Positions 2,358-61,729 of a stretch of 64,000 nt of DNA are shown here, piece after piece. A model generated the notes under the pieces. That model was given only the letters and a program-made list of their open reading frames with translations, ran no database searches and was not told where the DNA came from. Within the stretch, counting starts at the first letter, position 1. Each line of letters opens with the position of its first letter. The stretch is taken from sequence record OZ346187.1; one strand, 5' to 3'. The position numbers were made by a program, and so were the translations under genes. The DNA is from a phage.

Positions 2358-4425
2358 ATTTATGGCATCTGCATACAACCGTTTCGGTGAGCCAAACCCG
2401 AAAGCAATTAAGTATAAAAGTGGGGGAAGTGTGAAACGAGACTATCGTGATGAAAAAGAGGTTGAAACTGTAGAGACTGTTTTAGAAAATACTAAAATCG
2501 TCCCTGTCCCACAACAAAATATCGGTCTGATGGCTGCACAATATTTTGGTGTGCGATCAGCATTGTCCCAAGAAGACGGTGTGACAGTCACTGCAACATA
2601 TTTCCCATATTACGACCGATACGGAAATCTGTCCGGTTTCAAAAAGCGTGACTGGACTATTCCTAAAGAACAAAGGGGCCACTTCTCCGTTGTTGGCATA
2701 GTAAAGGCCAACTCCCAGATGTTTGGTCAAAAGCTGTGTGCATCTTCCAACAACCGTAAGCAGATTAACGTTTGTGAGGGAGAAGGTGATGTTATTGCAG
2801 CATGGCAGGCTGCATATCAGATACAAGTAAAAGGGATTCTCACCAACGCTAAAGCCCCGGCAAAGGTGAAGCAGTGGGCTAAAGAGGTCCAGGACGGGAT
2901 CGACGCAGTTATCAACGGTGGTGATCTGGCAGGAAAACCCTGCCTGCCTTTTGTTGGAATTAACTGTGGATGTGCAAACGCAGTAGATACTTTTGCAAAC
3001 AATGAGAAGTTTATCCGTAGCTATGGAACAGTTGTGCTGGCAATGGATAACGATGCAGCTAACGAGGTAGAGAAGCAAAAACACGTCATTAAAGGTGTTG
3101 AGGCCACGCACAATATCGCAGCATTTTTGATGGCTGATAACGTTTACCACGTAGAATACCCTGGTGAAGTAAATGACCCTGACGGGGTAAAAGATATCCG
3201 TGACATGCTGAAGGCTAAAAAGCTGGAAGATATTGTCAACATGTTCCGGCACCCTGTTAAATATGTGCCTGATGCTGTGTCGGATTTAGAAGACTTCTCT
3301 ATCGAGTCTTTGCGGAAAAAGACTTCCAACGGGGTAGATATCAGCGCAGAGTTCCCAAAACTGCAAAAAATGCTAAAAGGCTTGCACAAAGGGACACTCG
3401 TAATGCTTACAGGGCCATCAGGGGGCGGTAAAACAACTGTAGCTAAAAAACTGGAACATTGTATTGCAAGATACCTAATGGACCCGACATGCCCGAAGGC
3501 TGATGACTATGAAGAGGATGATCGTCTATGTATGATCCATCTTGAGGAGGACCCAGAGGAAGCAATTAACTCCTTGTATGCAAACCAGTTAGGGTTTGAT
3601 GTTAAAGAGTTTGTTGAAGATCCTAGCCAGTTTTTAACTGATCAAGAACACGCAGAGATTCACCAATCATGGGCAAAAGCTGGAAAAATCAAAGTGTTCA
3701 AACATTTCGGATCTATTCCGGTGGACGAGTTGATTACCAAGCTTAAGCAAATGGTTTGCCTGTACCATTGCCGTTATATTGTGCTGGATCACCTATCCAT
3801 GGTAATTTCAGGGCTTAATGTTAAGGATGAGCGAAAAGAACTGGACATGGCTATGACTCAGCTGGCTGCGTTTTGTAAGCAGTTTAACGTGTTTATCTTG
3901 GTGATCGCTCACCTCAAACGTACAGAGATTGTGCCTCCTAAGGACAAGGATGGTAACCCGTTACCTTTCTGGTATCCTGTGCGAAAAGAGAATTTGCGAG
4001 GATCGGCGGGGCTTGAACAGTTGAGTTGGGTAGTCATAGGTGTCGAGGCCGAAGAAATGGTGGATCGTTCTCGTGGACGTGTCCGTCTGGTAGGTCTTAA
4101 AAACCGTCCAGCAAAAACTCTAGGTATTGCTGACACTTTGGTTATGGACCCGCACACAGGTAAGTTCCATGATGCCAGTAATTGGTACTGGGACAAAGAA
4201 ATGCAAATGTTTACAGACGGAGAAGGTGGGGAGGTTGTTTGGAGACCTCAGGCTATGTTTGAGGATCAGGAGCATGCAGTTGTAGAAACACCTATGGGCA
4301 AGGTTGTGGCTGATAAGGTTGTAACTCCTACTGTTAAGCCTGTTGACACGCAGGAAGACCTCCAGTACGATGATCCATCCTCTGACCCGGTCCCTGGTTT
4401 TGAGGATGATGAAACGCCTTTTTAA
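2347..4425 (+). CDS. primase-helicase (TOPRIM primase fused to DnaB-like helicase)
   Basis: TOPRIM-like CEGEGD and VLAMDNDAANE; Walker A GPSGGGKTT; Walker B IVLDHLS; 692 aa. Confidence 0.7.
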   Translation: MGSKFMASAYNRFGEPNPKAIKYKSGGSVKRDYRDEKEVETVETVLENTKIVPVPQQNIGLMAAQYFGVRSALSQEDGVTVTATYFPYYDRYGNLSGFKKRDWTIPKEQRGHFSVVGIVKANSQMFGQKLCASSNNRKQINVCEGEGDVIAAWQAAYQIQVKGILTNAKAPAKVKQWAKEVQDGIDAVINGGDLAGKPCLPFVGINCGCANAVDTFANNEKFIRSYGTVVLAMDNDAANEVEKQKHVIKGVEATHNIAAFLMADNVYHVEYPGEVNDPDGVKDIRDMLKAKKLEDIVNMFRHPVKYVPDAVSDLEDFSIESLRKKTSNGVDISAEFPKLQKMLKGLHKGTLVMLTGPSGGGKTTVAKKLEHCIARYLMDPTCPKADDYEEDDRLCMIHLEEDPEEAINSLYANQLGFDVKEFVEDPSQFLTDQEHAEIHQSWAKAGKIKVFKHFGSIPVDELITKLKQMVCLYHCRYIVLDHLSMVISGLNVKDERKELDMAMTQLAAFCKQFNVFILVIAHLKRTEIVPPKDKDGNPLPFWYPVRKENLRGSAGLEQLSWVVIGVEAEEMVDRSRGRVRLVGLKNRPAKTLGIADTLVMDPHTGKFHDASNWYWDKEMQMFTDGEGGEVVWRPQAMFEDQEHAVVETPMGKVVADKVVTPTVKPVDTQEDLQYDDPSSDPVPGFEDDETPF

Positions 4426-16447: not shown

Positions 16448-16758
16448 TACTTGAAAATCCCTGGCATATCAAGTGTAAGGAGGATTTCTAAAATGGATTT
16501 CCTCCTTTTGATATTTCACCGGGCCAGATATTTTAAAATTCTTAGAAAATCAGGTCTTTGAAATGAAAAACAGATCGAGTACCGAAAGAGGATGTACAAA
16601 TTTTCTGATAATAATGGACTTATTGTTATAAAAGGTCAGAGGTAAGCTGGGAAAGTTCTGGTAGAAGGGTGAGAGTATGTGCGGAAAAATCTGGAATAGT
16701 GACTTAAAGTACGGTGCGAACGATAAGGAATTGAGCAGCACATCTTATCGTGCCTGTA

Positions 16759-17149
16759 TTTTGTGTGGATGAATGAGAATACCTATCATTGTGAGAACCA
16801 TTATCATTACGGGCAATTTAACAGTACCGATTATGCGCACCACTGGCGATACATACAGGGATTGATAACATGGGTTACTGTTTACGCACATAACAATTGT
16901 ATTTCTTACTATTTGTGTGGGCGTTTAGACGTTGACGGTCAGAAGTCTGCAGGTTAATATCTAATCTATTGGCTGCTAACTATATCCCACACAAATAGTA
17001 AGAAATACAATTGTTATGTGCGTAAACAGTAACCCATGTTATCAATCCCTGTATGCATGCCAGTGGTGCGCATAATGGGTATTATGTTAAATTGCCCGTA
17101 ATGATAATGGTTCTCACAATGATAGGTATTCTCATTCATCCACACAAAA
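16759..17149. repeat. large imperfect inverted repeat (two ~163-bp arms, 16759-16921 and 16986-17149, 64-bp spacer)
   Basis: Right arm is the reverse complement of the left with a few substitutions; mirror ORFs 16763-16957(+) and 17014-17205(-) give the same peptide; spacer holds TTGACG, 17 bp, TAATAT. Confidence 0.85.
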
Positions 17150-17379
17150 TAGATTGCAAATGTTGTGCCACTGTGTGAACGGCCTGGCCTATTAATTTGC
17201 CTCACTGCCTTGATATTTGAGAATTATTATAAGAATGAGAAGTATTCCCATTTCGTCCGCCTGGCAGCACTCCTGTAGGTCCTGCAAGGACTCTAGCTGA
17301 AAGCTAGACCCTTCGGGCCTCCCTGCAGGTCAGGTCAAAATCGTGGTAGAATTGGGCCTGTTCAGATATTTCTGGCTGA

Positions 17380-18590
17380 CTCTTCAGGTCTGTGTGGGAA
17401 AAGCCAACCTCTCCGGCGGGGCATGGGGTCATGACGGGAAAATTGCAGGTCAATTAAAAAATTTACGTGGTGTATGAAGCGCTCTTCAGGTAAGGCAGGT
17501 ATTATGGGATGAAACCCTCTTCAGGCAATGATATTTGTGGGTGTGATATTTGCTGGAAAGCCAGATATGACGGGACTCCCGGCGGGGCAGGGGTAGTACA
17601 GACAGGGAAAATATGGAGGATGTGGTTGGGTAAATTGATCAGGCAGGTAGAGTATGGAATATGTTACAGGTATGTTAAATAGGGAGGCTGAATATCTGTA
17701 GGATTTGTGTGTAAAATCAAAGACTTAAGTGGTGTTGTGGTATTTTCTATAAATAATTCAAGTTTAATAGGTAATATTTGTCTCTATTCGCTTTGTGTGG
17801 TAAACAGATTCAGATGAGATTGGTTTACAAGTGTATACATAATATACAAATTAAAGATACAAGAAACCCCCCTCCCCCTTCGGCTACCATTCACCTTTTC
17901 CTCTGACTGGTACTTAAACACTTATTCAGACTCTTCAGGTTATCACCCATATATCATATGGCAGTGACTGGTGTCCTCCGGCCCCTCTTTCGTCACCCGT
18001 CCGCTTCGCCATGCTAATGCCATAGCCAATGGTTCGGTTGTTCACCCTGTTCACTCAGGTGTATCTCCATACCCCTTCAAACCGAAGAGAACAGAAAACC
18101 CGAATTACTCGGTAAAAGAAAAGAGAAGAACTTAATTTTATCAGGATAGGCAAGAATGTCAAGGCATGACTGCTCACTAAACAAGCAAACAGTCATGTGT
18201 GGAAGGTAAGTGATTGTGGTGGTAGGAAATTTAGTTGAAAGATGTGTTATAGGTGCTTCCAGCACTTTAGCCGGGCAGCTAATTGTGTGTCAGTCCAGCG
18301 GTTCATCCTCTACTTCACTGAAATCAATGTTCATGGTCTCTTCCCAACCATCGATCTCAGCACAAGAGTGGAGTTCTTTAGGGTTTACTCCCAAAGCCTC
18401 AGCAACAGAGTCTATATTTAACACCTCTGGCAGGTATGATTCATCGAATTCAAGGTAAATCAGGCCACGAGTGTTGTCAGCTCCACCAAATATCTCTATC
18501 TTCATGAAATCTCCTCTGGAAATGAGAGTGTGAACAGGGTTTTATACGTTCTAATGCACAGGAATTATACACGTTTGCCTCTTCAGGCCA
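17380..18590. repeat. repeat-rich non-coding junction with recurring CTCTTCAGG 9-mer
   Basis: CTCTTCAGG at ~17380, 17482, 17516, 17931, 18579; related blocks CCGGCGGGGCA(T/G)GGGT at 17412 and 17578 and GGCAGGTA at 17493 and 17643; several short hairpins. Confidence 0.6.
18290..18505 (-). CDS. small acidic protein
   Basis: 71 aa, strongly acidic (D/E-rich); RBS-like AGAGGAGA upstream. Confidence 0.4.
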   Translation of the reverse strand: MKIEIFGGADNTRGLIYLEFDESYLPEVLNIDSVAEALGVNPKELHSCAEIDGWEETMNIDFSEVEDEPLD

Positions 18591-19199: not shown

Positions 19200-19511
19200 C
19201 TATACCCACGAGGGCTTATCAAGGTTGGAGTAGCTGAAAGGTGTCAAAAGGTGACTGTCAAAATCTCTCAAACTATCCAAATCTTTTTCCTCGTCCTGAC
19301 ACCATCTGTGCCTACATTTGTTGTTGTAGTGCATGGAATGCATAGCGTTCTGCAACTTAACAGGCACAAGTGATTCAGGAGTAGATAGTATTGTTGGGTA
19401 TGCCAGAACCACCTCAAACAGTGGAAACACATCGAAACTAAAGTCTACCTCTGCAGAGGTTGATGGCATGTAGGAGTATTTAGCCGCCTTTGTAGACATA
19501 ATCCACCTCAC
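19200..19511 (-). CDS. hypothetical protein
   Basis: 103-aa ORF. Confidence 0.4.
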   Translation of the reverse strand: MRWIMSTKAAKYSYMPSTSAEVDFSFDVFPLFEVVLAYPTILSTPESLVPVKLQNAMHSMHYNNKCRHRWCQDEEKDLDSLRDFDSHLLTPFSYSNLDKPSWV

Positions 19512-20223: not shown

Positions 20224-20541
20224 TTAACGTTCTACAAAAATACCGTTCAGTTCAATAACCAGGAATTTCTGGTCTTCACTATCGTCTCGTGCCAGCACCT
20301 CACAGACGTATCGGTCATCCCCATCATCATCGCAGTAAAATACAAGACTGAGGACTTTATCATGGTAAACCTTCGCAACTACCGCCTCGTAAGTATTGCC
20401 GATTGTGAATCCAAGATAATCTCCGATGCATTTGACAACAACATGGTCTCCAGCATTTAAGTCAATCTTCGTCATTACTGCGCTCCTTGGGTAATAATAC
20501 TGTATGTAAAACTTTAACCAGAGATGTGAATAACGCCCCAA
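20224..20541 (-). CDS. hypothetical protein
   Basis: 105-aa ORF. Confidence 0.4.
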   Translation of the reverse strand: MGRYSHLWLKFYIQYYYPRSAVMTKIDLNAGDHVVVKCIGDYLGFTIGNTYEAVVAKVYHDKVLSLVFYCDDDGDDRYVCEVLARDDSEDQKFLVIELNGIFVER

Positions 20542-20983: not shown

Positions 20984-21271
20984 TCATAGTGCCTCTAAGA
21001 TTTCATATCCTTCGGGTCGGAATACAAGCCACTCCGTGGCTCCGTTTGGTCGATACGCTTTATACAGAACAACCTGGTCTCGGCACATGCACATGGCTAC
21101 ATAGTTTTCATCCACACCTGCAGCCTGCATTGCATCTTCTTCTCCGGCAACTGCTTTGCTTACAACTTCCTTGGTAGGCAGGTGTGCGATCAGCTCGTCA
21201 CCATCATTAATTCCAAAATGGCTGAGTTCGCCGTTGGTATCTTTAATCTTAATCTTAACCAGATCTTTCAT
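20984..21271 (-). CDS. hypothetical protein (small-protein paralog group)
   Basis: 95 aa; MK-hydrophobic N-terminus and acidic C-terminus as in neighbouring ORFs. Confidence 0.4.
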   Translation of the reverse strand: MKDLVKIKIKDTNGELSHFGINDGDELIAHLPTKEVVSKAVAGEEDAMQAAGVDENYVAMCMCRDQVVLYKAYRPNGATEWLVFRPEGYEILEAL

Positions 21272-21600
21272 TAGTCTTCCCCCAGGTTCAAAGGTCCTAA
21301 GATTTCATATGCCAGATTAGAAGTTACAAGAGGGTCTTCTGCGTCTTTAGTATTATACCACCCGTGAATAACCAGAGTCCCACTTTGTTTCATGTCCAAC
21401 TGGAACTCTTCTGCCGTTTCCTCATCCAGCTCCAAGATTTCCATAAGGTATTTGATGTTAGGGAGGTATGCAGCTGTTACAGTCCCCTCTACCAGACCTT
21501 CAGGCCAACCTACATCTGGATGACAAGTAGGAACCAGATTGGTCAGCTTAATGGTGTACGCTTTTTCTGCACGAGCCTTCAGTAACGGGTCAATCTTCAT
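21271..21600 (-). CDS. hypothetical protein
   Basis: 109-aa ORF. Confidence 0.4.
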   Translation of the reverse strand: MKIDPLLKARAEKAYTIKLTNLVPTCHPDVGWPEGLVEGTVTAAYLPNIKYLMEILELDEETAEEFQLDMKQSGTLVIHGWYNTKDAEDPLVTSNLAYEILGPLNLGED

Positions 21601-21950
21601 TATTCGTCCTCCTCTTCGGTACCTGCTTCCAGTAATAAGTTAAGAATATCTTCTGCACAAGGCTCATAGAACTCTTGGCCTTCATTATCGATGATTTTGT
21701 AGTCATCTCCGCGAATAATCAGAGGATCACTCTCAAAATTATCGAGACCTTTAACAACGACAACACGATCGATTGCCATCATTGTAAGAACTTTATCGAC
21801 ATCTTCCTCTGCTACACCATACTGCAGCAGAATGTCTTTGGTAGGAGGAACAGCATCCACCACAACACCGTTACCAAAACCTTCCGGTAAGTTAGCTAAA
21901 ATATCTTCCGGAACCACACTAACATCAAAACCAGTAATTTCTACTTTCAT
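21600..21950 (-). CDS. hypothetical protein (small-protein paralog group)
   Basis: 116 aa; MKVEITG start, acidic tail. Confidence 0.4.
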   Translation of the reverse strand: MKVEITGFDVSVVPEDILANLPEGFGNGVVVDAVPPTKDILLQYGVAEEDVDKVLTMMAIDRVVVVKGLDNFESDPLIIRGDDYKIIDNEGQEFYEPCAEDILNLLLEAGTEEEDE

Positions 21951-22211
21951 TTACAGCACCTCTTCGTCAACTACTTCATAAAAATGGCCTGGGATTGCAA
22001 TAGCGTTCTCACCTTCACCTACAAACACAGTTCCGTCAAGAATCAACATCATAAGAGTTTCTGGAATATCCTCTTCCTGAACGTTGCCAAAACCTTTAAT
22101 CAGCTCGTAGGTTGGAAGATTTACCTCTAAGATGTCACCATCTTTAGAGCGGAAATCAACACCATCCTGAATCTCTGCCATTTCAAGGTTTTTCAGTTTA
22201 ATCTTCATCAA
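21951..22211 (-). CDS. hypothetical protein (small-protein paralog group)
   Basis: 86 aa; MMKIKLKNL start, acidic tail ...VVDEEVL. Confidence 0.4.
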   Translation of the reverse strand: MMKIKLKNLEMAEIQDGVDFRSKDGDILEVNLPTYELIKGFGNVQEEDIPETLMMLILDGTVFVGEGENAIAIPGHFYEVVDEEVL

Positions 22212-22240
22212 TCAGTCTCCCGTCTTGTTAAGATGAAGGT

Positions 22241-22269
22241 ATTATTTCACACAGGGTTGGCGTTGTCAA
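22241..22269 (-). promoter_or_regulatory. sigma70-type promoter (minus strand)
   Basis: Reverse complement reads TTGACA, 17-bp spacer, AATAAT. Confidence 0.4.
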
Positions 22270-22287
22270 CACCTGTGTGCAAGAAAA

Positions 22288-22683
22288 TTACTGAAACAGT
22301 GCGGATAAATTACCTTCTGGTGGGAACTTATCTGCCAAAAACGGTGTTAGCACAGTAGCCTTCTGAAGATCTGGGGTCCACTCGTTGTTCAGAACATCCC
22401 AGTAGTACGCAATGTTGCTGTGTGGGTGCCGCATTACGAACTTTTTCCCTTCGTAGTCATCTGAAACCTCTACAGAAGAAATAACAACAGAATCTTCAAG
22501 GGTTTCTTCATAGAAAGATCCACCTTCAAATTTCCAACGAGATGCAAGAGCTCCTGCCTTGAACGCTGCAGATAACGGACTGTCTGCAAGAACATACATT
22601 TCTTGCACTCTGTCGCTGCGATCTTTGCTTCTTACGTTGTATACAGTATCTGAGCTATACTCAACACGGTATAGGCTTACCAT
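22288..22683 (-). CDS. hypothetical protein (paralog of 24490-24888)
   Basis: Shared motifs with 24490-24888: HP(H/D)S...(Y/H)YW(D/N)...(E/T)WTP. Confidence 0.45.
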   Translation of the reverse strand: MVSLYRVEYSSDTVYNVRSKDRSDRVQEMYVLADSPLSAAFKAGALASRWKFEGGSFYEETLEDSVVISSVEVSDDYEGKKFVMRHPHSNIAYYWDVLNNEWTPDLQKATVLTPFLADKFPPEGNLSALFQ

Positions 22684-23042
22684 TACCGCACCTCCTCAAT
22701 AACTTCCACATCTGAGCCCACCACAAATGCAAAAGGACAGGTTTCATGAAAGACATCCGGATCGCCGCCAAGCTTGCTAACAATCTCTCCACCACTAATA
22801 AACACAAGCTCACCGATATTCATCAGATTGCTGAAATAGTACCCATAATGATTAAAGAATGCAGCAGGGTCAGGTAGACTAGTAGCCTCAAGCACTACAT
22901 CAGTTGAGGTTACTTTCTTATCATAACCTCTCGCCTTTTGAGATGCAAGATCTGCAGAATCCTCAGGCGACCGGAGATGCACAGGAATTGTTTCACCAAT
23001 AAAGCGTACTTTCATATTATCACCCAACAACCATAGCTTCAA
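22683..23042 (-). CDS. hypothetical protein (small-protein paralog group)
   Basis: Internal MKVRFIGE... to ...SDVEVIEE matches the family; true start may be at 23015. Confidence 0.4.
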   Translation of the reverse strand: MKLWLLGDNMKVRFIGETIPVHLRSPEDSADLASQKARGYDKKVTSTDVVLEATSLPDPAAFFNHYGYYFSNLMNIGELVFISGGEIVSKLGGDPDVFHETCPFAFVVGSDVEVIEEVR

Positions 23043-23283
23043 AAGGGGTCATGAACGAATAAACGGCATCATCATCTGCTTCAGGGAATGCTCCCAAAGA
23101 CTTCATGTCTGAGCCCTTGACAAATACAAGGTTTTGATCAAAAGCTTCTTGAGGATCAATCCGATACATATTTCGTAGAATATCGCCTACCTCCTCATCA
23201 AGAGGTGAGTATGCTGTGCACGTTTTTCCGATCAAGCTTTGAGAATCAGGGTATCCACCTGAAGTTTTAAAATAAACAATCAT
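23020..23283 (-). CDS. hypothetical protein (small-protein paralog group)
   Basis: 87 aa; contains VFVKGSDMKSLGA. Confidence 0.4.
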   Translation of the reverse strand: MIVYFKTSGGYPDSQSLIGKTCTAYSPLDEEVGDILRNMYRIDPQEAFDQNLVFVKGSDMKSLGAFPEADDDAVYSFMTPFEAMVVG

Positions 23284-23374
23284 ATAGTATCACCTCTGGT
23301 AAGAGATTGGGATTCCTTTCCCACAAATAATTACAAACCTTCCTTATCGAGGAAGTATGCTAATCCAAGCAGGA

Positions 23375-23644
23375 TTATTCCTCTACAATCTCATACACAT
23401 CCGGAGTTACAATCAACTCTTCTCCGTTACCCGGTGCAACAAACACCACCATGCCTTCAGGTGTGTGCTTTTTAGCCATCTCGATAACATCTTCTCGCAG
23501 AGCTGGCTCCATCAGATCAAAACCTTCACCCAGGGCATCACGAACCACCTTCATATAGTCAACTGGTTGTGCTTCGACAATCATACCTTCAACCAGTCCA
23601 CAGTTTTTGTCTGCCAGCTCAGTTTTGAATAATTTAATTTTCAT
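23375..23644 (-). CDS. hypothetical protein (small-protein paralog group)
   Basis: 89 aa; MKIKLFK start, ends ...YEIVEE. Confidence 0.4.
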   Translation of the reverse strand: MKIKLFKTELADKNCGLVEGMIVEAQPVDYMKVVRDALGEGFDLMEPALREDVIEMAKKHTPEGMVVFVAPGNGEELIVTPDVYEIVEE

Positions 23645-23781
23645 TTAGAGGTCTCCTCAATTATTTGATATTAATAGCCGTAACCTAACACATTAACTAC
23701 AACTGCGATTGCAAACATAATTTCAAAGCATGCAATCTCTACATTTGGAACTAATTTCTTGATCACACCCATTGTAGCACC

Positions 23782-24099
23782 TCATTCTCTAAAGTCAATC
23801 TTTACTTTGCCTTTCCCCTTACCTTTCTTTCCACCGCATTTAGCCAGTTGACGTGCTGCAACATCTACCATACGGTCAGTTGCCTCGTAAGCATCACTGC
23901 CTTTAGCTTTGGCAATAACTTCTTTTCCAGAATTGTCAAAAATGAACGCCATAACTTCCTGGTGATCATTTTCAACTTTTACACTCACACGTGCATAGTT
24001 GGCAGAGGGATGCAAACGCTCCAGCTTAGACATTTTGTGGGAAATGAAAGACACCATACCTTCAGTGATTTCTACGTTGCCAGTGATTTCAATTTGCAT
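23782..24099 (-). CDS. hpf: ribosome hibernation promoting factor / RaiA-like protein
   Basis: MQIEITGNVEITEG...KLERL...VKVE...DAYEA.D...RQLAK with basic tail follows the bacterial HPF/YfiA pattern (MQLNITGNNVEITEAL...KL...). Confidence 0.6.
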   Translation of the reverse strand: MQIEITGNVEITEGMVSFISHKMSKLERLHPSANYARVSVKVENDHQEVMAFIFDNSGKEVIAKAKGSDAYEATDRMVDVAARQLAKCGGKKGKGKGKVKIDFRE

Positions 24100-24146
24100 A
24101 ACGTGTTCCTTTTAAAGAAGAGGGAACCAAACCCTCTTTGAAAACA

Positions 24147-24175
24147 ATGATACTAAATCTGAAGCGTTGTGTCAA
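24147..24175 (-). promoter_or_regulatory. sigma70-type promoter (minus strand)
   Basis: Reverse complement reads TTGACA, 17-bp spacer, TATCAT; lies upstream of the HPF-like gene. Confidence 0.45.
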
Positions 24176-24181
24176 CAGTTT

Positions 24182-24472
24182 TTACAGATTGTTGTCGATA
24201 GTTTTTAAAATATCCACAGCAAGATCTGCCATTTTTCGAACATACTCTGCAAACTCAACAGGATCCTTGATCAAAGAATTCACAGGGTCGTACCCTAGAG
24301 CGTTCAAAATGGCTGCAGCATCTACAACCTTCTCATCATTTGCGAAGATCTCTCCATCAAACTTGTAGGTCCATTTTGAGTCAATCTTGGCAGGGAATGA
24401 TTGGTCAACGCTTGTTACACCATCCTTTTTAAACGCTCCGGTGTTATCAGTGTCTAGAACTAAATCCATCAT
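24182..24472 (-). CDS. hypothetical protein
   Basis: 96-aa ORF. Confidence 0.4.
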   Translation of the reverse strand: MMDLVLDTDNTGAFKKDGVTSVDQSFPAKIDSKWTYKFDGEIFANDEKVVDAAAILNALGYDPVNSLIKDPVEFAEYVRKMADLAVDILKTIDNNL

Positions 24473-24489
24473 GTTAGTACCTCACCGTT

Positions 24490-24888
24490 TCAGTTTAGCT
24501 TTTCTTCAACAACCCCATAGCTCGGGACAGAGTCAAGAGCTTTCTGGTTTAAAAGTGGTGTAGCAGAATCTGCAAACGGTGTCCAAGTTTTTGTTCTGGC
24601 ATTCCAGTAATGCTTCACTCTGGAATCTGGATGCACTATAACAAAAACTTTTTCACTTGTCAACACATTAATTTCTTCTACACCCTTGCTGATAATTTCT
24701 CCGTCATAGCCACCAGTCTGGTATCCTTCGTACCAGGTTCTTGCATATGCATAGCCAGCCTGCCAGCATGCAGCCTCCTCCGAGGTGGAGACTACGTAGA
24801 AGTCTTTCTCAAATTCTGGGATACGCCCTTGCTTTACGCTCCAAGCTCCGCGAATTTTCATTGTAACTTTGAACAGTTTATTTTTCAC
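24490..24888 (-). CDS. hypothetical protein (paralog of 22288-22683)
   Basis: Shared motifs VIVHPDSRVKHYWNARTKTWTP. Confidence 0.45.
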   Translation of the reverse strand: MKNKLFKVTMKIRGAWSVKQGRIPEFEKDFYVVSTSEEAACWQAGYAYARTWYEGYQTGGYDGEIISKGVEEINVLTSEKVFVIVHPDSRVKHYWNARTKTWTPFADSATPLLNQKALDSVPSYGVVEEKLN

Positions 24889-24900
24889 AACGGTTACCCA

Positions 24901-25155
24901 TCACAGCTCTACAATCTCTGCATCTGACCCTGCCCCAAAGGCATAATAGGATTCTTCCCCGAAATAATATTCCGGTGCACCAGCAGCGATCAGGTCTGAT
25001 CCCAAGATAAACACCACGTTGTGGCCTACATAACTGTGATGTTGCCGCACAGGATCATCCCACGGCAACCCTTCAAAGTATACCGCAGGAACGACCTTTC
25101 CCTTCAGGAAGGATTGTCCCAAGTAGACGTTAGAATCAAGAATTTTAACCTTCAT
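24901..25155 (-). CDS. hypothetical protein (small-protein paralog group)
   Basis: MKVKILDS...GSDLIAAGA...EIVEL. Confidence 0.45.
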   Translation of the reverse strand: MKVKILDSNVYLGQSFLKGKVVPAVYFEGLPWDDPVRQHHSYVGHNVVFILGSDLIAAGAPEYYFGEESYYAFGAGSDAEIVEL

Positions 25156-25372
25156 TCTCGTCCTCCACTATCTCTACATCCTCACCAAGGGCAAAGTTGT
25201 AGGTCCACTGGCTGTCAAAGCAGTCCTGAGATGCACCAGCGGAAATAAGATCTGCACCTTTTATTTTTAAAAGGTCAGGATAATCTTCGTTAGGGATAGC
25301 GGTAAACACTTTCCCCACTAAGGGCTCCTGACCAATATAGAAGCTTGAATCTAAAACTTTAACTTTCATCAA
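25145..25372 (-). CDS. hypothetical protein (small-protein paralog group)
   Basis: MMKVKVLDS...GADLISAGA...EIVEDENEG. Confidence 0.45.
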   Translation of the reverse strand: MMKVKVLDSSFYIGQEPLVGKVFTAIPNEDYPDLLKIKGADLISAGASQDCFDSQWTYNFALGEDVEIVEDENEG

Positions 25373-25656
25373 CGGTCTCCCTCAGGCGGTTGTGGGACGT
25401 AAACACTGTTACGAATATCGTCAGCAGTGTAGTAATAAGTGGTTCCAACCCTATCTCGGGCTGCAATGTACTCTGCTATACCAATAAGTGCCATTGATTT
25501 GGTGGCGTATCTTCCCCACTCGTTAGCTCCCCAGTAGAATTTAGACCAGTAGGGAATAATACCGAACAAATATACCTTTTGACGAACTTCCCAGTAAGTG
25601 CCTTTTCCGACAAGTTTAAACTCTACTTCACTACTGTTAATCTTTTTCATTATCAA
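25369..25656 (-). CDS. hypothetical protein
   Basis: 95-aa ORF. Confidence 0.4.
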   Translation of the reverse strand: MIMKKINSSEVEFKLVGKGTYWEVRQKVYLFGIIPYWSKFYWGANEWGRYATKSMALIGIAEYIAARDRVGTTYYYTADDIRNSVYVPQPPEGDR

Positions 25657-25949
25657 TCTCCCTCTACCGTGGTCGGATTGTCAGTAAGAAATTGAGCATT
25701 GGCTGGAGGCACGCCTGACATTTTCCACACAACCATAAGTTTGTAACCAGGAACTCTATTAAGTGCAGATCGAGTAGAGTTTGTGCACGTATACTTTCGC
25801 TTTCCAAACCCGTTCTCCATCATAATCCAGTACCCAGTATCTTTGTCACCAGGTATCGGTAGACCACCTTCATCAACCCACTGAATGGACCACGGCACGA
25901 TGGCTACAGCTTTATATTTAAACTTTTTAAACCACTCAAAAAGTTTCAT
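25653..25949 (-). CDS. hypothetical protein
   Basis: 98-aa ORF. Confidence 0.4.
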   Translation of the reverse strand: MKLFEWFKKFKYKAVAIVPWSIQWVDEGGLPIPGDKDTGYWIMMENGFGKRKYTCTNSTRSALNRVPGYKLMVVWKMSGVPPANAQFLTDNPTTVEGD

Positions 25950-26044
25950 AATTCAGCCTCGCATAGACATAATCACTATAAACAGGCAAACAATGAATCC
26001 GAATGCCACGCCACCCATAAACGTTAATATTGATGCAATCATAG

Positions 26045-26230
26045 TCAATCAGCCTCGCTTGGCAACTCTTCTACCTTAACATGCCGAAAAGTGTTACCGT
26101 AATGGTTGATCCATGACATCAGCTCGCTTTCTTGCTCTTCCTCTGGGATGAACTCTCGAATGCTGACAAGTTTTAAGAAAACCCAATCACAATCTGCACC
26201 CATTCTACCAGACAGGCAATAGTGCTTCAT
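26045..26230 (-). CDS. hypothetical protein
   Basis: 61-aa ORF. Confidence 0.3.
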   Translation of the reverse strand: MKHYCLSGRMGADCDWVFLKLVSIREFIPEEEQESELMSWINHYGNTFRHVKVEELPSEAD

Positions 26231-26248
26231 AAAACCCCCCCACCTGGT

Positions 26249-26443
26249 TTAGAATATTGCTTCTTCCATTGCACCTGAGAGCAACAAAGAGGTGATCTGG
26301 CTAACATTCATCTCAGACTCTACTTCCTCCCCTTTGAAAGGTTCGCGGCAGAATAGGACTGTTTCAGGACTTTTACTTCGAACAATATAATACAAATCAT
26401 TCAATGTGTTGTAGTAATAAGTGTTAAAACGTAAGTTTTTCAT
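26249..26443 (-). CDS. hypothetical protein
   Basis: 64-aa ORF. Confidence 0.3.
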   Translation of the reverse strand: MKNLRFNTYYYNTLNDLYYIVRSKSPETVLFCREPFKGEEVESEMNVSQITSLLLSGAMEEAIF

Positions 26444-26727
26444 TTTCTAGTCCCCTTCTTAGATTTTTGTGTAGAAACGCTTTCTGCAATACGAGACAAA
26501 CGTTCTTCTGAAGCCTTGCCTATTCCAGGTTTTTTGAGTGGGTTATCTTTATGACCACAATCCAATTGGATATTGGATACCTCTCCAACCTTGTAAGTCA
26601 ATTCTAGCAAAAGGTTGTCGTCCTTGTCAAATGTTCTTACGATAAATTTTTTATCGTTCTCCTGAACTTCGTATCGGGTACCCGCAGTATACAACATGGT
26701 GCCATCCGCATAGGATATCCAGATCAT
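26440..26727 (-). CDS. hypothetical protein
   Basis: 95-aa ORF. Confidence 0.35.
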   Translation of the reverse strand: MIWISYADGTMLYTAGTRYEVQENDKKFIVRTFDKDDNLLLELTYKVGEVSNIQLDCGHKDNPLKKPGIGKASEERLSRIAESVSTQKSKKGTRK

Positions 26728-27071
26728 TGAACCTCCTTCTGCTGCAACAGCATTAACTCTTTGTTGGAGATTTTTACTGCTGTTTTTATTGTTCCATCTT
26801 CACGAAACCACGACCAGAACTCTACAGTGTCCCCACTGTCAAGCAAAGCATACCCGTGGTAGAAGTCTTTGTCCTTAGACAGTTTCTCATCTATGTCTGC
26901 ATCGACACATTCGTGATCCATAGCATTTTGCCTGAATGCATCGGTTATACCAATGCACGCCTTGCTCTCAAGACTGGTATATCCGATATCTTTTAATTCA
27001 GTTTCCCAAGTCCAGTACCCTATAAAAGCTAAAACAGCTACCCACATTAATAACGTTTTAATCTTTGGCAT
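26724..27071 (-). CDS. putative secreted or membrane-anchored protein
   Basis: N-terminal hydrophobic segment LLMWVAVLAFIGYW. Confidence 0.35.
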   Translation of the reverse strand: MPKIKTLLMWVAVLAFIGYWTWETELKDIGYTSLESKACIGITDAFRQNAMDHECVDADIDEKLSKDKDFYHGYALLDSGDTVEFWSWFREDGTIKTAVKISNKELMLLQQKEVQ

Positions 27072-27133
27072 TCTCTCTACCTCTTTCTTAGTTTATTTCA
27101 CTATGGCACATCCTTTGTGCCATATCTCAACCA

Positions 27134-27595
27134 CTACTTAAATAGTAGTCCAAAATAGTGCAAAATTAACAGAAGTTGAACTACACCTAGTGCAACGGCG
27201 AGTATGTTAATCTTAGAATCGAAAAACTTCTTAACTTTTACTCTAAAAGGTTCCTTAATGTCCTTTACGATCCTATTTATAGATGATTTCATATCCCTGA
27301 TTACCATCCTAAACATTAGAGACGGATCTTCCTTCTCTGTAATAGAATCGAAAACATACTCTCTTCGGTCATAAGGACCTCCAGATCTGCGTATTAACCT
27401 CTCCACAGAGACCTCGTACGACACACCTGTAACGTAATCATCTATGATAAGTAGTGACGGGTCTTTATCGTCCAAGGGTATTAAAGTTATCTTTCCAGAT
27501 TTTGTTAAAATTTCTCCTTTTTCAAGCAAGGTGTACCAATGCTCTCTACCAAGATTGTTGAGGCACGTTTTTACATATTTAACAAACATCGTCAC
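27134..27595 (-). CDS. hypothetical protein with C-terminal transmembrane segment
   Basis: Ends ...ILAVALGVVQLLLILHYFGLLFK. Confidence 0.4.
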   Translation of the reverse strand: MTMFVKYVKTCLNNLGREHWYTLLEKGEILTKSGKITLIPLDDKDPSLLIIDDYVTGVSYEVSVERLIRRSGGPYDRREYVFDSITEKEDPSLMFRMVIRDMKSSINRIVKDIKEPFRVKVKKFFDSKINILAVALGVVQLLLILHYFGLLFK

Positions 27596-27795
27596 CCCTC
27601 ATAGCACGTCTGATATAACCACTCTATGAAATCTTGATACCATTCGCCCTCTGAGCGCTCCGTAGGCCAATAATCTTCACCCTCTCGTGCATTAAAATCT
27701 GAGTATTCAACTTTCCACTCCTTTACCAGCTCGTGGAGAAGGTTTTCAGCCTGCTCTAAAGATTTATTTTTTGCCATTGCTGTCTCCTTTTTCAA
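27592..27795 (-). CDS. hypothetical protein
   Basis: 67-aa ORF. Confidence 0.35.
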   Translation of the reverse strand: MKKETAMAKNKSLEQAENLLHELVKEWKVEYSDFNAREGEDYWPTERSEGEWYQDFIEWLYQTCYEG

Positions 27796-27996
27796 GATAG
27801 TTATACATCAGAACTGCACCACCTAAGATGGCTACCAGTAACAATATCCCAGATAGCATCTCAATAAACATGGCTTGAAACACTGGAAGGTCTCCCTAAA
27901 TTAACGCACCATTTTAAATACATGCTCTTTTCCCATAAAGGTGCCTGGCTAAGATCTGCGTAGAACGCAATCTCTTTAAGAACAGTATAGATAGTT

Positions 27997-28314
27997 TTAG
28001 GTGCGGTCTCCATCCCTACTCTCCTTCCTGATATTCTTGTAGTAATCAACTAGGCACATTATTACGATGAAGATAACAACAGGCCAAAAAGGTGCAGCAG
28101 TGATGATGGTGATAAAATCATCAAACTTCACCCTTCGTCTGGACACGATGCATACACCTGTCAAGAATACCGCTGTTATAACGGACATTACCAGGTAACC
28201 TATTAGCACAACATTTATACTCATTGGTCCTCCCCTTTGTAGGTTAAATTGTATACTACAAATGGTCGCTGAGGGTGTCAAGAAAATTATCCCGTTCTTT
28301 CTCAGAGTTTTCAT
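27997..28314 (-). CDS. small membrane protein
   Basis: Two hydrophobic segments. Confidence 0.35.
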   Translation of the reverse strand: MKTLRKNGIIFLTPSATICSIQFNLQRGGPMSINVVLIGYLVMSVITAVFLTGVCIVSRRRVKFDDFITIITAAPFWPVVIFIVIMCLVDYYKNIRKESRDGDRT

Positions 28315-28789
28315 GTGTGTAGCTGAAAAACATATCGAGAATAACCTTATTGATATATTCCAGCTCCTCTGTGTTCAGATGCTTAGCAGGATCTACAATG
28401 ACATCCCAAATATCATACAGACCACACTCATGATACCCATAACGCCACTCAATTGTCAAGCTGAGCGGCAAATCTTTACCGTCACAAACAACCTTCCATC
28501 TACATATGTTGGTATCTGGTCGTACCTGTGCACGGTACACCTGTACAAAATCCAATTTGAATTTGAGGTACTCGTCATACAATTTAAGCACAAAGCTCTC
28601 GATTTGTGGAGACACTTTTGCAGCAAACTGTGCGTATTTGTACTTGCACTGGATGATCTTTCTGCGTTTTGCAGTTAAATTTTTTGCCGCCAGTTGTTCT
28701 TCAGTGTATCTCCACCTACGATCAACAAACGCAACAGGGTCTTTGTCCCCATAGAGGTCTTCCCAGTTAATCAGAAGCATACCTGTCAC
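28256..28789 (-). CDS. hypothetical protein
   Basis: 177-aa ORF. Confidence 0.4.
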   Translation of the reverse strand: MTGMLLINWEDLYGDKDPVAFVDRRWRYTEEQLAAKNLTAKRRKIIQCKYKYAQFAAKVSPQIESFVLKLYDEYLKFKLDFVQVYRAQVRPDTNICRWKVVCDGKDLPLSLTIEWRYGYHECGLYDIWDVIVDPAKHLNTEELEYINKVILDMFFSYTHENSEKERDNFLDTLSDHL

Positions 28790-29019
28790 TCCTCCACAAC
28801 TTCAAGGCCTTTACCGCCTCGCTCTGGCAGATTACTTAAAGATAGGTAATACATATAATCAGGAGAGATCCTGCCAGACTCTGCACCTGCAGCTAGTAAA
28901 TCCTTCCCTTTAACCAGGACAACATTCTCGTTTGCAGATAGCCGTTTTGCTTCCACAATTTTACCAACACAGTCAACCAAGGAAGGGTACCCTAAATCTG
29001 TAAGAAATTTAACTTTCAT
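28786..29019 (-). CDS. hypothetical protein (small-protein paralog group)
   Basis: MKVKFLTD...GKDLLAAGA...LEVVEE. Confidence 0.45.
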   Translation of the reverse strand: MKVKFLTDLGYPSLVDCVGKIVEAKRLSANENVVLVKGKDLLAAGAESGRISPDYMYYLSLSNLPERGGKGLEVVEE

Positions 29020-29056
29020 GCTACCTCCTACCTACCATCCCTGGTAAGATAAATTA

Positions 29057-29455
29057 TTACTGAACAGAGCGCGGTGCTGGGAAGGATAACTCTTCTAAAG
29101 AGAAGATTTCATTTCCTACCACCCAAGTTGCTGGGTCATCTGGATCAACAGGTTGGATAATCATTACCTCATCAGCCTCGCACACACGTTTCCCACCCAT
29201 AGTAGCGTCAGCCACTAACATACGCGGCTCTTCAGAAATGCACAGGTAGCCACCTCGGCCCACTGTTCCTTCCACGGGATCCTGCCCTTTGACCACAATG
29301 AATACCTTCTCTCCTGTGGCGATATTACTTTTCACACTAACAGTTTGACCAACTTTAGATGTACCGATCTTGGTGGCTTCAAACATTAAATCCCGAATTA
29401 CTGTTGCATAGTTGCCGGACACTTTCTTACCTTCTTTAGTAATCTCAATCTTCAT
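29057..29455 (-). CDS. hypothetical protein (extended member of small-protein paralog group)
   Basis: MKIEITK start; internal VFIVVKGQDPVEG resembles the family core. Confidence 0.4.
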   Translation of the reverse strand: MKIEITKEGKKVSGNYATVIRDLMFEATKIGTSKVGQTVSVKSNIATGEKVFIVVKGQDPVEGTVGRGGYLCISEEPRMLVADATMGGKRVCEADEVMIIQPVDPDDPATWVVGNEIFSLEELSFPAPRSVQ

Positions 29456-61630: not shown

Positions 61631-61729
61631 GCTAGGTAAGCCCTTTGGCAAGGGCGAGGATTTTTAATCCTGAAAATAGACGAGGTAGTCGTTGAATACA
61701 TAGGTGGTTCGATTCCATCACCTAGCACC
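61631..61729 (+). tRNA. atypical tRNA-like gene (~99 nt), anticodon ambiguous (most consistent with TTT)
   Basis: Perfect 7-bp acceptor GCTAGGT/ACCTAGC, D-arm GCCC-TTTGGCAA-GGGC, T-arm GGTGG-TTCGATT-CCATC; anticodon stem imperfect with loop TTTTTAA; ~29-nt extra region before the T-arm; 3' end ACC then T (CCA not fully encoded). Confidence 0.35.

Follow-up and report, generated by a model that had tools for sequence, protein, structure and literature searches.

What does a phage gain from a set of small genes whose products begin and end in much the same way? The question is raised by positions 20984-29455 of sequence record OZ346187.1, part of a 64,000-nucleotide stretch of phage DNA that was analysed as a whole and is called the window here. 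From the letters alone, an initial annotation had described this region as a tandem array of diverged paralogs of about 80 amino acids (aa), sharing an MKVK-like start, a G.DL..AGA-like core and an EIVEE-like end, and had suggested diversifying selection and a role in anti-defence or host takeover. In the follow-up described here, ten such genes and an interleaved pair are sorted into three families, A, B and C, two of which (A and B) are given a confident fold prediction. The array would go back to two old expansions, possibly related to each other, of a small, acidic and probably cytoplasmic protein of 74-116 aa on an SH3-like five-stranded beta-barrel. The role that we tentatively favour, in what is nearly an even call, is that of small acidic SH3-like binders acting as accessory host-range or counter-defence factors. 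A link can be drawn to an existing, unexploited transposon-insertion sequencing (Tn-seq) signal in a sister phage, which turns this proposal into a directly testable host-range hypothesis.

The region is 99.6% identical to Escherichia phage AlexBoehm/Bas56, and the window comes from a Vequintavirus, an rV5-like myovirus that infects E. coli. Phages of the rV5 type are common candidates for therapy and biocontrol, and to our knowledge no function has been assigned to the majority of their accessory genes. A search of the literature found nothing on the rV5 paralogs, on transcriptomes or on PHROG 5009, the phage protein family to which several of the genes belong.

Sorting the genes into families

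Every gene in 20984-29455 lies on the minus strand of the window, and the coordinates used by the initial annotation, which also serve as gene names here, are therefore the low, stop-codon ends. The open reading frames (ORFs) that it listed are real genes. All of them are annotated as hypothetical coding sequences (bas56_0141 to 0169 in AlexBoehm, or gp121 to gp149 in rV5), a Shine-Dalgarno-like motif stands 5-12 nucleotides (nt) before the ATG of each, and they are under purifying selection (see below).

Relationships were sought by an all-against-all phmmer comparison of 469 six-frame ORFs of the window and by iteration of a hidden Markov model (HMM) over 963 ORFs, among them those of two phages from sister genera. 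Family A emerges as a robust group of five genes, 22683, 23020, 24901, 25145 and 28786. Genes 24901 and 25145 match each other at E 1e-11 with 47-49% identity, and an HMM built from three seeds recovered 23020 (E 1.4e-6) and 22683 (E 4e-5), with no other of the 963 ORFs below E 0.1. The HMM of PHROG 5009 matches 24901, 25145 and 28786 at E 1e-32 to 1e-36 and 23020 weakly (1.2e-4), with no match at E <=0.01 for 22683 or any family-B gene. The G.DL..AGA core turned out to be specific to family A, rather than common to all members as had been proposed.

Members of family A are scarce. When 1.84 billion representative proteins were searched exhaustively with its HMM, 28 clusters were found at E <=1e-3, all unannotated, and their proteins are single domains of 63-107 aa apart from two with tandem domain copies. 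These two are distant homologs, one with three copies (P0101, 264 aa) and the other with two (P0112, 219 aa), so that arrays of the domain occur inside one polypeptide and not only across genes. In word-indexed searches of 5.8 billion proteins, the profiles of A and B as well as 29057 brought up essentially only Vequintavirus orthologs, together with one lambdoid-prophage homolog of family A. Two copies of family A are carried by a 42-kb phage contig. Both this contig and the prophage belong to unrelated phages, in which the homologs occupy accessory positions. Searches of Pfam, NCBIfam, PADLOC and PDB sequences gave no match for family A and nothing usable for families B and C or for 29057.

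Some further traces of family A may be present in the window. A 27-nt direct repeat (24358-24384 and 25192-25218, 78% identity) encodes DSKWTYKF in gene 24182 and DSQWTYNF in 25145, and the copy at 24358-24384 may be what is left of a family-A strand 4 within 24182, a gene that looks unrelated. A possible additional paralog pair of small acidic proteins is found on the minus strand at 20224-20475 and 48174-48506 (phmmer E 2.8e-4), and the family-A profile gives 48174 a weak score.

Family B likewise has five genes, 20984, 21271, 21600, 21951 and 23375, of which 21271 was missing from the list in the initial annotation. Its pairwise phmmer matches are weaker than those of family A (E 3e-4 for 21600 and 21951, E 0.02 for 20984), and membership was examined with a non-circular test in which profiles were built without one whole subfamily, orthologs included, and then scored on 120 gene-like ORFs. 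The left-out gene ranked first of 120 all five times, with hhalign probabilities of 32-88% and hmmsearch E values of 3e-7 to 0.046. The similarities within A and within B are thus above chance, as judged by the kind of alignment statistics that, according to the initial annotation, could have refuted its claim; the single family that it described needs two profiles, which are not linked to each other at the profile level.

Several observations touch on family B. In the rV5 reference (contig L010, 9526-9796), the ortholog of 20984 is split into two overlapping ORFs, gp148 and gp149, through a frameshift or a sequencing error. A 71-aa ORF on the minus strand at 18290-18505, which starts MKIEIF, reaches hhalign probabilities of 11-22% against family-B profiles in some runs, while only its N-terminus aligns in another; it may be a sixth, degenerate member. 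A 98-aa protein (P0085) is a chimera in which the C-terminal half of a 21271 ortholog is joined to another N-terminus that contains Pfam PF24132, and this provides evidence for fragment shuffling in the family.

Family C consists of 22288 and 24490 (phmmer E 1e-9, both in PHROG 7379), interleaved with the genes of A and B. A fold like that of E2/UEV proteins was considered for this family and rejected: the top three PDB matches of the single sequence 22288 are E2 ubiquitin-conjugating enzymes at only E 0.4-0.8, and they disappear when the family profile is used. Gene 29057, which had been proposed as a longer relative of the array, is not supported as a member of A or B. It matches them only at MKIEI and in an 11-column VVKGQD patch, with hhalign probabilities of 0.2-2%; against A, B and C the probability is at most 2.4%, even with an ortholog alignment.

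A predicted SH3-like barrel

AlphaFold2 models were made for 25145 of family A and 21951 of family B from alignments of paralogs plus orthologs. The model of 25145 (pLDDT 92.0) has strands at residues 2-5, 21-23, 33-37, 56-61 and 65-69, and a short helix at 38-43 that corresponds to the G.DL..AGA motif. In the model of 21951 (pLDDT 89.7) these five strands recur, and two helices are inserted between the second and the third; three family-A members carry an insertion at the same point. The modelled barrel superposes on solved SH3, KOW or PsaE domains, and families A and B are predicted to have the same SH3-like five-strand barrel. According to the models, the N-terminal (MKVK…) and C-terminal (…EIVEE) motifs form the first and last strands, which would lie side by side. 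Structure prediction, which the initial annotation had recommended, delivered a common barrel for A and B. The Foldseek matches among viral predicted structures are all uncharacterised phage proteins.

The places where the paralogs differ may bear on what the barrels do. In a 26-sequence alignment of family A, conservation peaks at strand 1, Y11, G19, A24, the G.[DE]L..GA helix, Y57/F59 and strand 5, and entropy and indels are highest in the loops between strands 1 and 2 and between strands 2 and 3. It is chiefly by insertions and substitutions in these two loops that the paralogs differ from one another. The same loops are the partner-binding loops of SH3-type domains, and by analogy they may serve to bind partners in these proteins as well. 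Our proposal is that each paralog binds a different host protein stoichiometrically.

Barrels of this general shape suggest two other kinds of function. Nucleic-acid-binding barrels (KOW, Sm or OapB-like) could bind RNA or DNA and modulate transcription or translation, but all A and B members are acidic, with isoelectric points (pI) of 4.1-5.4 and a negative net charge, and no Pfam KOW match was found in the searches with these families. Alternatively, they could be SH3 proteins that assist lysis or bind the cell wall, comparable to the standalone SH3 protein (DUF7244) by the T1-like lysis cassette. Standalone SH3 genes beside lysis modules have been described (PMC13164509), and family-A homologs do occur upstream of holin genes, namely in an E. 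coli lambdoid prophage, where the homolog lies between the Q antiterminator and the holin, and in contig L021. Against this, none of the 28 family-A members matches DUF7244 or another Pfam SH3-clan model at E up to 5, and the ten window proteins have no SH3-clan match at E up to 1. No signal peptide and no hydrophobic segment or N-terminus was seen when the sequences were read by eye, the genes of this phage lie far from its lysis genes and behind sigma-70-like promoters, and the role proposed for DUF7244 is itself just a hypothesis. Missing family matches, the lack of an export signal, strong acidity and genomic position thus disfavour both alternatives, and we regard a lytic function and a nucleic-acid-binding function as equally and highly improbable.

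Common ancestry of families A and B

The evidence on whether the two families descend from one ancestor is mixed. In profile-profile comparisons by hhalign, which were tried with three family-A profiles (basic, extended and an insert-bearing sub-profile), A and B match with a probability of 1-17%, and single cross-family matches are not above the background of real ORFs, so that homology is not claimed from these alignments. The alignment is nevertheless colinear over 58-80 columns, with a score of 22 compared to 9.2 ± 1.8 for column shuffles (z about 7). The longest family-A alignment among the B members is that of 23375, 29 columns at E 0.005 against the extended family-A profile.

The ends of the proteins provide a second line of evidence. 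In a set of 124 gene-like ORFs, the strict form of the start, MK[VI]K[ILVF], is present only in 21951, 23375, 24901, 25145 and 28786, and E[IV][IV][ED] within the last 12 residues is present only in these five and 22683; 23375 and 21951 are the only B members with both motifs. Position matrices were also derived for the first and last strands of family A, mostly from distant homologs outside the window, and when the 124 ORFs are ranked by these matrices, three B members come high on the list, 20984 in 5th, 23375 in 7th and 21951 in 8th place, and no unrelated ORF scores better than they do (chance about 4e-5). The other two B members, 21271 and 21600, do not score in this test. The likeness of the termini noted in the initial annotation is thus beyond chance, since it is restricted to A and B among the 124 ORFs.

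The shared ends could have arisen by convergence, if small barrels tend to start with Met-Lys and to end in an acidic strand, and A and B would then be two independent, unrelated expansions. The low profile-profile probabilities and the background-level cross-family matches fit this explanation, and so do the structural differences: the AGA helix is missing from B, and the helical hairpin is missing from the two shortest family-A members of the window, 25145 and 28786. It is less easily reconciled with the terminal-strand test, with strict motifs that occur in no other ORF, with the colinear alignment, or with the common predicted fold, common insertion site and adjacent positions of the two families. 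On balance we lean towards a shared ancestor and consider convergence the less probable explanation, though one with a substantial chance of being right.

Age, selection and distribution

The paralogs are 21-47% identical and show no similarity or repeats between them at the DNA level, so that the duplications must be old. Recombination between copies still occurs. In two independent Vequintavirus contigs (L019 and L020, both at 3001-3213), the pair 25145/24901 is replaced by one chimeric 70-aa gene, whose product takes its N-terminus from 25145 and its C-terminus from 24901, which argues for unequal recombination between the copies.

The diversifying selection suggested for the array was not borne out. 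Pairwise comparisons with four other Vequintavirus genomes gave ratios of nonsynonymous to synonymous differences (pN/pS) of 0.00-0.35 for 9 of the 10 genes, the same range as for neighbouring genes, and the sequences thus reveal orthologs under purifying selection. The exception is 21951, with pN/pS of 0.34-1.09, the value of 1.09 being based on five substitutions.

Families A and B are conserved across about 120 Vequintavirus genomes and are absent from the syntenic 40-kb regions of Seunavirus, Mydovirus and Henunavirus phages, which belong to the same subfamily (Vequintavirinae). Their absence from these regions marks them as accessory genes specific to the genus Vequintavirus within that subfamily. 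The region 20984-29455 as a whole is matched by 122 phage records, nearly all of them Vequintavirus and all but two at 90% identity or more. Eighteen of the 122 are named "Campylobacter phage" (stated host C. jejuni), several of them unannotated; these are probably mislabelled or contaminant assemblies.

Gene order and behaviour on two hosts

In the direction of transcription, the genes come in the order 29057, 28786 (A), 3.4 kb of other genes, 25145 (A), 24901 (A), 24490 (C), 24182, the promoter P144, a ribosome hibernation factor gene, 23375 (B), 23020 (A), 22683 (A), 22288 (C), the promoter P150, and then the four B genes 21951, 21600, 21271 and 20984 (Table 1). This is an expansion of small proteins, as the initial annotation recognised, but not a strictly tandem one, because its members are interleaved with the hibernation factor gene, with 22288 and 24490, and with other genes. 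The order A-A-C is present twice and tightly packed each time, as 25145-24901-24490 (gaps of -11 and 39 nt) and as 23020-22683-22288 (gaps of 4 and -1 nt). That one A-A-C unit arose as a segmental copy of the other was considered and could not be demonstrated from similarity, since 25145 is closest to its neighbour 24901 and not to 23020. The internal promoters are of the sigma-70 type, which suggests that the host RNA polymerase would transcribe the genes. They are also the sole basis for assigning the genes to an early region, and no timing data were found.

A recent HIDEN-SEQ preprint reports transposon-insertion sequencing of Bas54 (Escherichia phage MaxBurger), a sister phage (10.1101/2025.11.20.689424). 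Four window proteins were compared with their Bas54 orthologs and found to be 99% identical. The part of the preprint's Extended Data Table 8 that is used here covers genes 0080-0186, and its host comparison is restricted to the laboratory strain K-12 and the uropathogenic isolate CFE311. For K-12, the table assigns every ortholog of an A, B or C gene, and also that of 29057, to the class "Non-essential" or "Intermediate", the latter class including bas54_0151-0153 (10.1101/2025.11.20.689424).

On CFE311 the picture is different for one group of genes. Orthologs of the second A-A-C triple, bas54_0152, 0151 and 0150 (23020, 22683 and 22288), have zero counts on this strain, with log2 fold changes (log2FC) of -7.16, -6.17 and -6.77 and q = 0, the strongest CFE311 depletion among genes 0080-0186 (10.1101/2025.11.20.689424). 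The ortholog of the other family-C gene, bas54_0157 (24490), is also depleted (log2FC -2.14, q = 0), bas54_0153 (23375) has a log2FC of -2.8 that is not significant, and bas54_0166 (28786), non-essential on K-12, is not depleted on CFE311 in the same table. These values suggest that 23020 and 22683 matter only on the clinical strain, and both become candidates for a factor of host range or anti-defence. The operon 23020-22683-22288, at least, may work as one unit on CFE311.

Since the genes of the triple are tightly packed, polar effects of the insertions have to be considered, and only 22288, the family-C gene, might be required. Insertions in 0141, directly upstream of 0140, and in 0158, directly upstream of 0157, are not depleted on CFE311 in the table, which argues against strong polarity in this dataset, and the authors of the preprint too argue against widespread polar effects (10.1101/2025.11.20.689424). 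One sheet of Extended Data Table 8, "resampling_K-12_vs_CFE303", shows the command line of the CFE311 sheet (with the 311 wig file), and the CFE303 results may be missing or mislabelled.

The same genes could be read as host-takeover proteins that bind conserved host machinery such as RNA polymerase, the ribosome, the nucleoid or division proteins, with redundancy among the paralogs accounting for their dispensability on K-12. Small acidic proteins behind sigma-70-like promoters would suit such a function, a ribosome hibernation factor is encoded in the same run of genes, and the class of the orthologs 0151-0153 on K-12 is "Intermediate", short of fully non-essential. However, conserved targets would not explain complete loss on CFE311 together with tolerance on K-12, and the genes are missing from sister genera that infect related hosts. 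We therefore judge this explanation unlikely, even if it is clearly better placed than the lysis and nucleic-acid alternatives.

Proposed role

Under the reading that we favour, the proteins would act as accessory factors in host range or counter-defence: the phage could do without them on a laboratory strain poor in defences and would need them on particular natural hosts. Dispensability on K-12, depletion on CFE311 and a nearby ortholog of bas54_0140 make an anti-defence or host-interaction role plausible. The gene at 19200-19499 on the minus strand, 1.5 kb downstream and in the same transcription unit, is a 99% identical ortholog of bas54_0140, a gene with validated anti-defence activity that counters DS-28, a system predicted in E. 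coli CFE311 (10.1101/2025.11.20.689424).

Several points weigh against this reading, beyond the weak profile match between A and B and the possible polarity within the triple. In the table, 7 of the 10 A and B orthologs have no CFE311 phenotype, and the 23375 ortholog, depleted non-significantly, makes an eighth (10.1101/2025.11.20.689424). The preprint validated only 0063 and 0140, both against DS-28, and bas54_0150-0152 are neither mentioned nor deleted in it (10.1101/2025.11.20.689424). The pairwise pN/pS values of the orthologs also carry no signature of positive selection.

A more specific and more speculative version can be formulated. The triple 23020-22683-22288 might be a three-component counter-defence or host-adaptation module that is needed on CFE311, the older duplicate 25145-24901-24490 might be a diverged module with another target, and A and B together might form a new superfamily of SH3-like phage immunity inhibitors. 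We consider this whole scheme rather unlikely. If the favoured role were confirmed, a new small-barrel family, and possibly a multi-gene module, would be added to the counter-defence repertoire of phages, and the array would show how old duplication and loop divergence can build such repertoires.

Map and neighbouring features

The positions of the genes and promoters are collected in Table 1.

Table 1. Genes of families A, B and C and associated features of the window, in map order
Feature	Position	Strand	Evidence and remarks
Family B, 95 aa	20984..21271	-	leave-one-out rank 1/120, probability 88%
Family B, 109 aa	21271..21600	-	leave-one-out rank 1/120, probability 52%
Family B, 116 aa, acidic C-terminal extension	21600..21950	-	leave-one-out rank 1/120, probability 80%, hmmsearch E 3e-7
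Family B, 85 aa	21951..22208	-	phmmer vs 21600 E 3e-4; ortholog rV5 gp145 / bas54_0149
Sigma-70-like promoter, 11/12 matches, extended -10	22241..22269	-	upstream of the four-gene family-B run; annotated P150 in rV5 record
Family C, 131 aa, last gene of second A-A-C triple	22288..22683	-	phmmer vs 24490 E 1e-9; ortholog bas54_0150
Family A, 110 aa, inserts in two loops	22683..23015	-	HMM E 4e-5; 99% identical to ortholog bas54_0151
Family A, 87 aa, with insert	23020..23283	-	HMM E 1.4e-6; 99% identical to ortholog bas54_0152
Family B, 89 aa	23375..23644	-	leave-one-out rank 1/120, probability 32%; ortholog bas54_0153
Ribosome hibernation factor gene	23782-24099	-	Pfam Ribosomal_S30AE, E 2e-12; promoter 24147-24175; Bas54 counterpart non-essential
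Sigma-70-like promoter, strong match	24147..24175	-	upstream of hibernation-factor gene and genes 23375-22288; annotated P144 in rV5 record
Family C, 123 aa (132 aa from GTG at 24888), last gene of first A-A-C triple	24490..24861	-	PHROG 7379; ortholog bas54_0157
Family A, 84 aa, insert between strands 2 and 3	24901..25155	-	phmmer vs 25145; ortholog rV5 gp136 / bas54_0158
Family A, 74 aa, minimal domain form	25145..25369	-	PHROG 5009 E 1e-36; ortholog rV5 gp135 / bas54_0159; 11-nt overlap with next copy
Family A, 77 aa	28786..29019	-	PHROG 5009 E 8e-36; family-A HMM match; ortholog rV5 gp122 / bas54_0166
132-aa gene, PHROG 5748, no supported relative	29057..29455	-	hhalign probability <=2.4% vs A, B and C

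Between the family-A copies 25145 and 28786, the stretch ~25653-27589 is prone to indels. Six of the seven genes checked there (o26045 to o27134) have no tblastn match in Bas54, and o25653 matches over 19 residues only; all seven are present in rV5 and in EcoIv14a_Aya. Elsewhere in the window, ~16450-18290 comprises ~2 kb with no convincing ORF, between convergent blocks of plus- and minus-strand genes. In Bas54 the counterpart of this stretch, between bas54_0134 and 0135, tolerates no transposon insertions (10.1101/2025.11.20.689424), which suggests an essential non-coding element. Finally, in a cluster of seven tRNA genes, ARAGORN predicts one tRNA at 61631-61729 on the plus strand that has a four-base anticodon (atcc) and to which the program assigns no identity.

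Relation to known systems

The proteins of families A and B are uncharacterised accessory small proteins of phages, which are a known kind. Family A corresponds to PHROG 5009, a phage family of unknown function with the same MKVK…G.DL..AGA…EIVEE pattern. That entry has no annotation of function or structure, and as 22683 and the family-B genes fall in other PHROGs, the paralogy, the fold and the A-A-C layout are not apparent from it. The nearest known superfold for both families is the SH3-like small beta-barrel, as found in SH3, KOW and PsaE domains and in the C-terminal domain of integrase. The T1-like standalone SH3 protein (DUF7244; PMC13164509) is similarly a small, single-domain, accessory SH3-like coliphage protein whose function has not been established experimentally, but it belongs to another sequence family and is single-copy and tied to a lysis cassette, whereas A and B are multi-copy and lie in an accessory region driven by sigma-70-type promoters.

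The comparison with bas54_0140 concerns biology rather than sequence. That gene is unrelated (PHROG 12072), and its target was validated by knock-out, whereas the role proposed for the A, B and C genes draws on insertion counts. It nevertheless comes from the same genus and the same transcription unit, encodes a protein of comparable size, and behaves like the genes of the 23020-22683-22288 triple in being non-essential on K-12 and depleted on CFE311.

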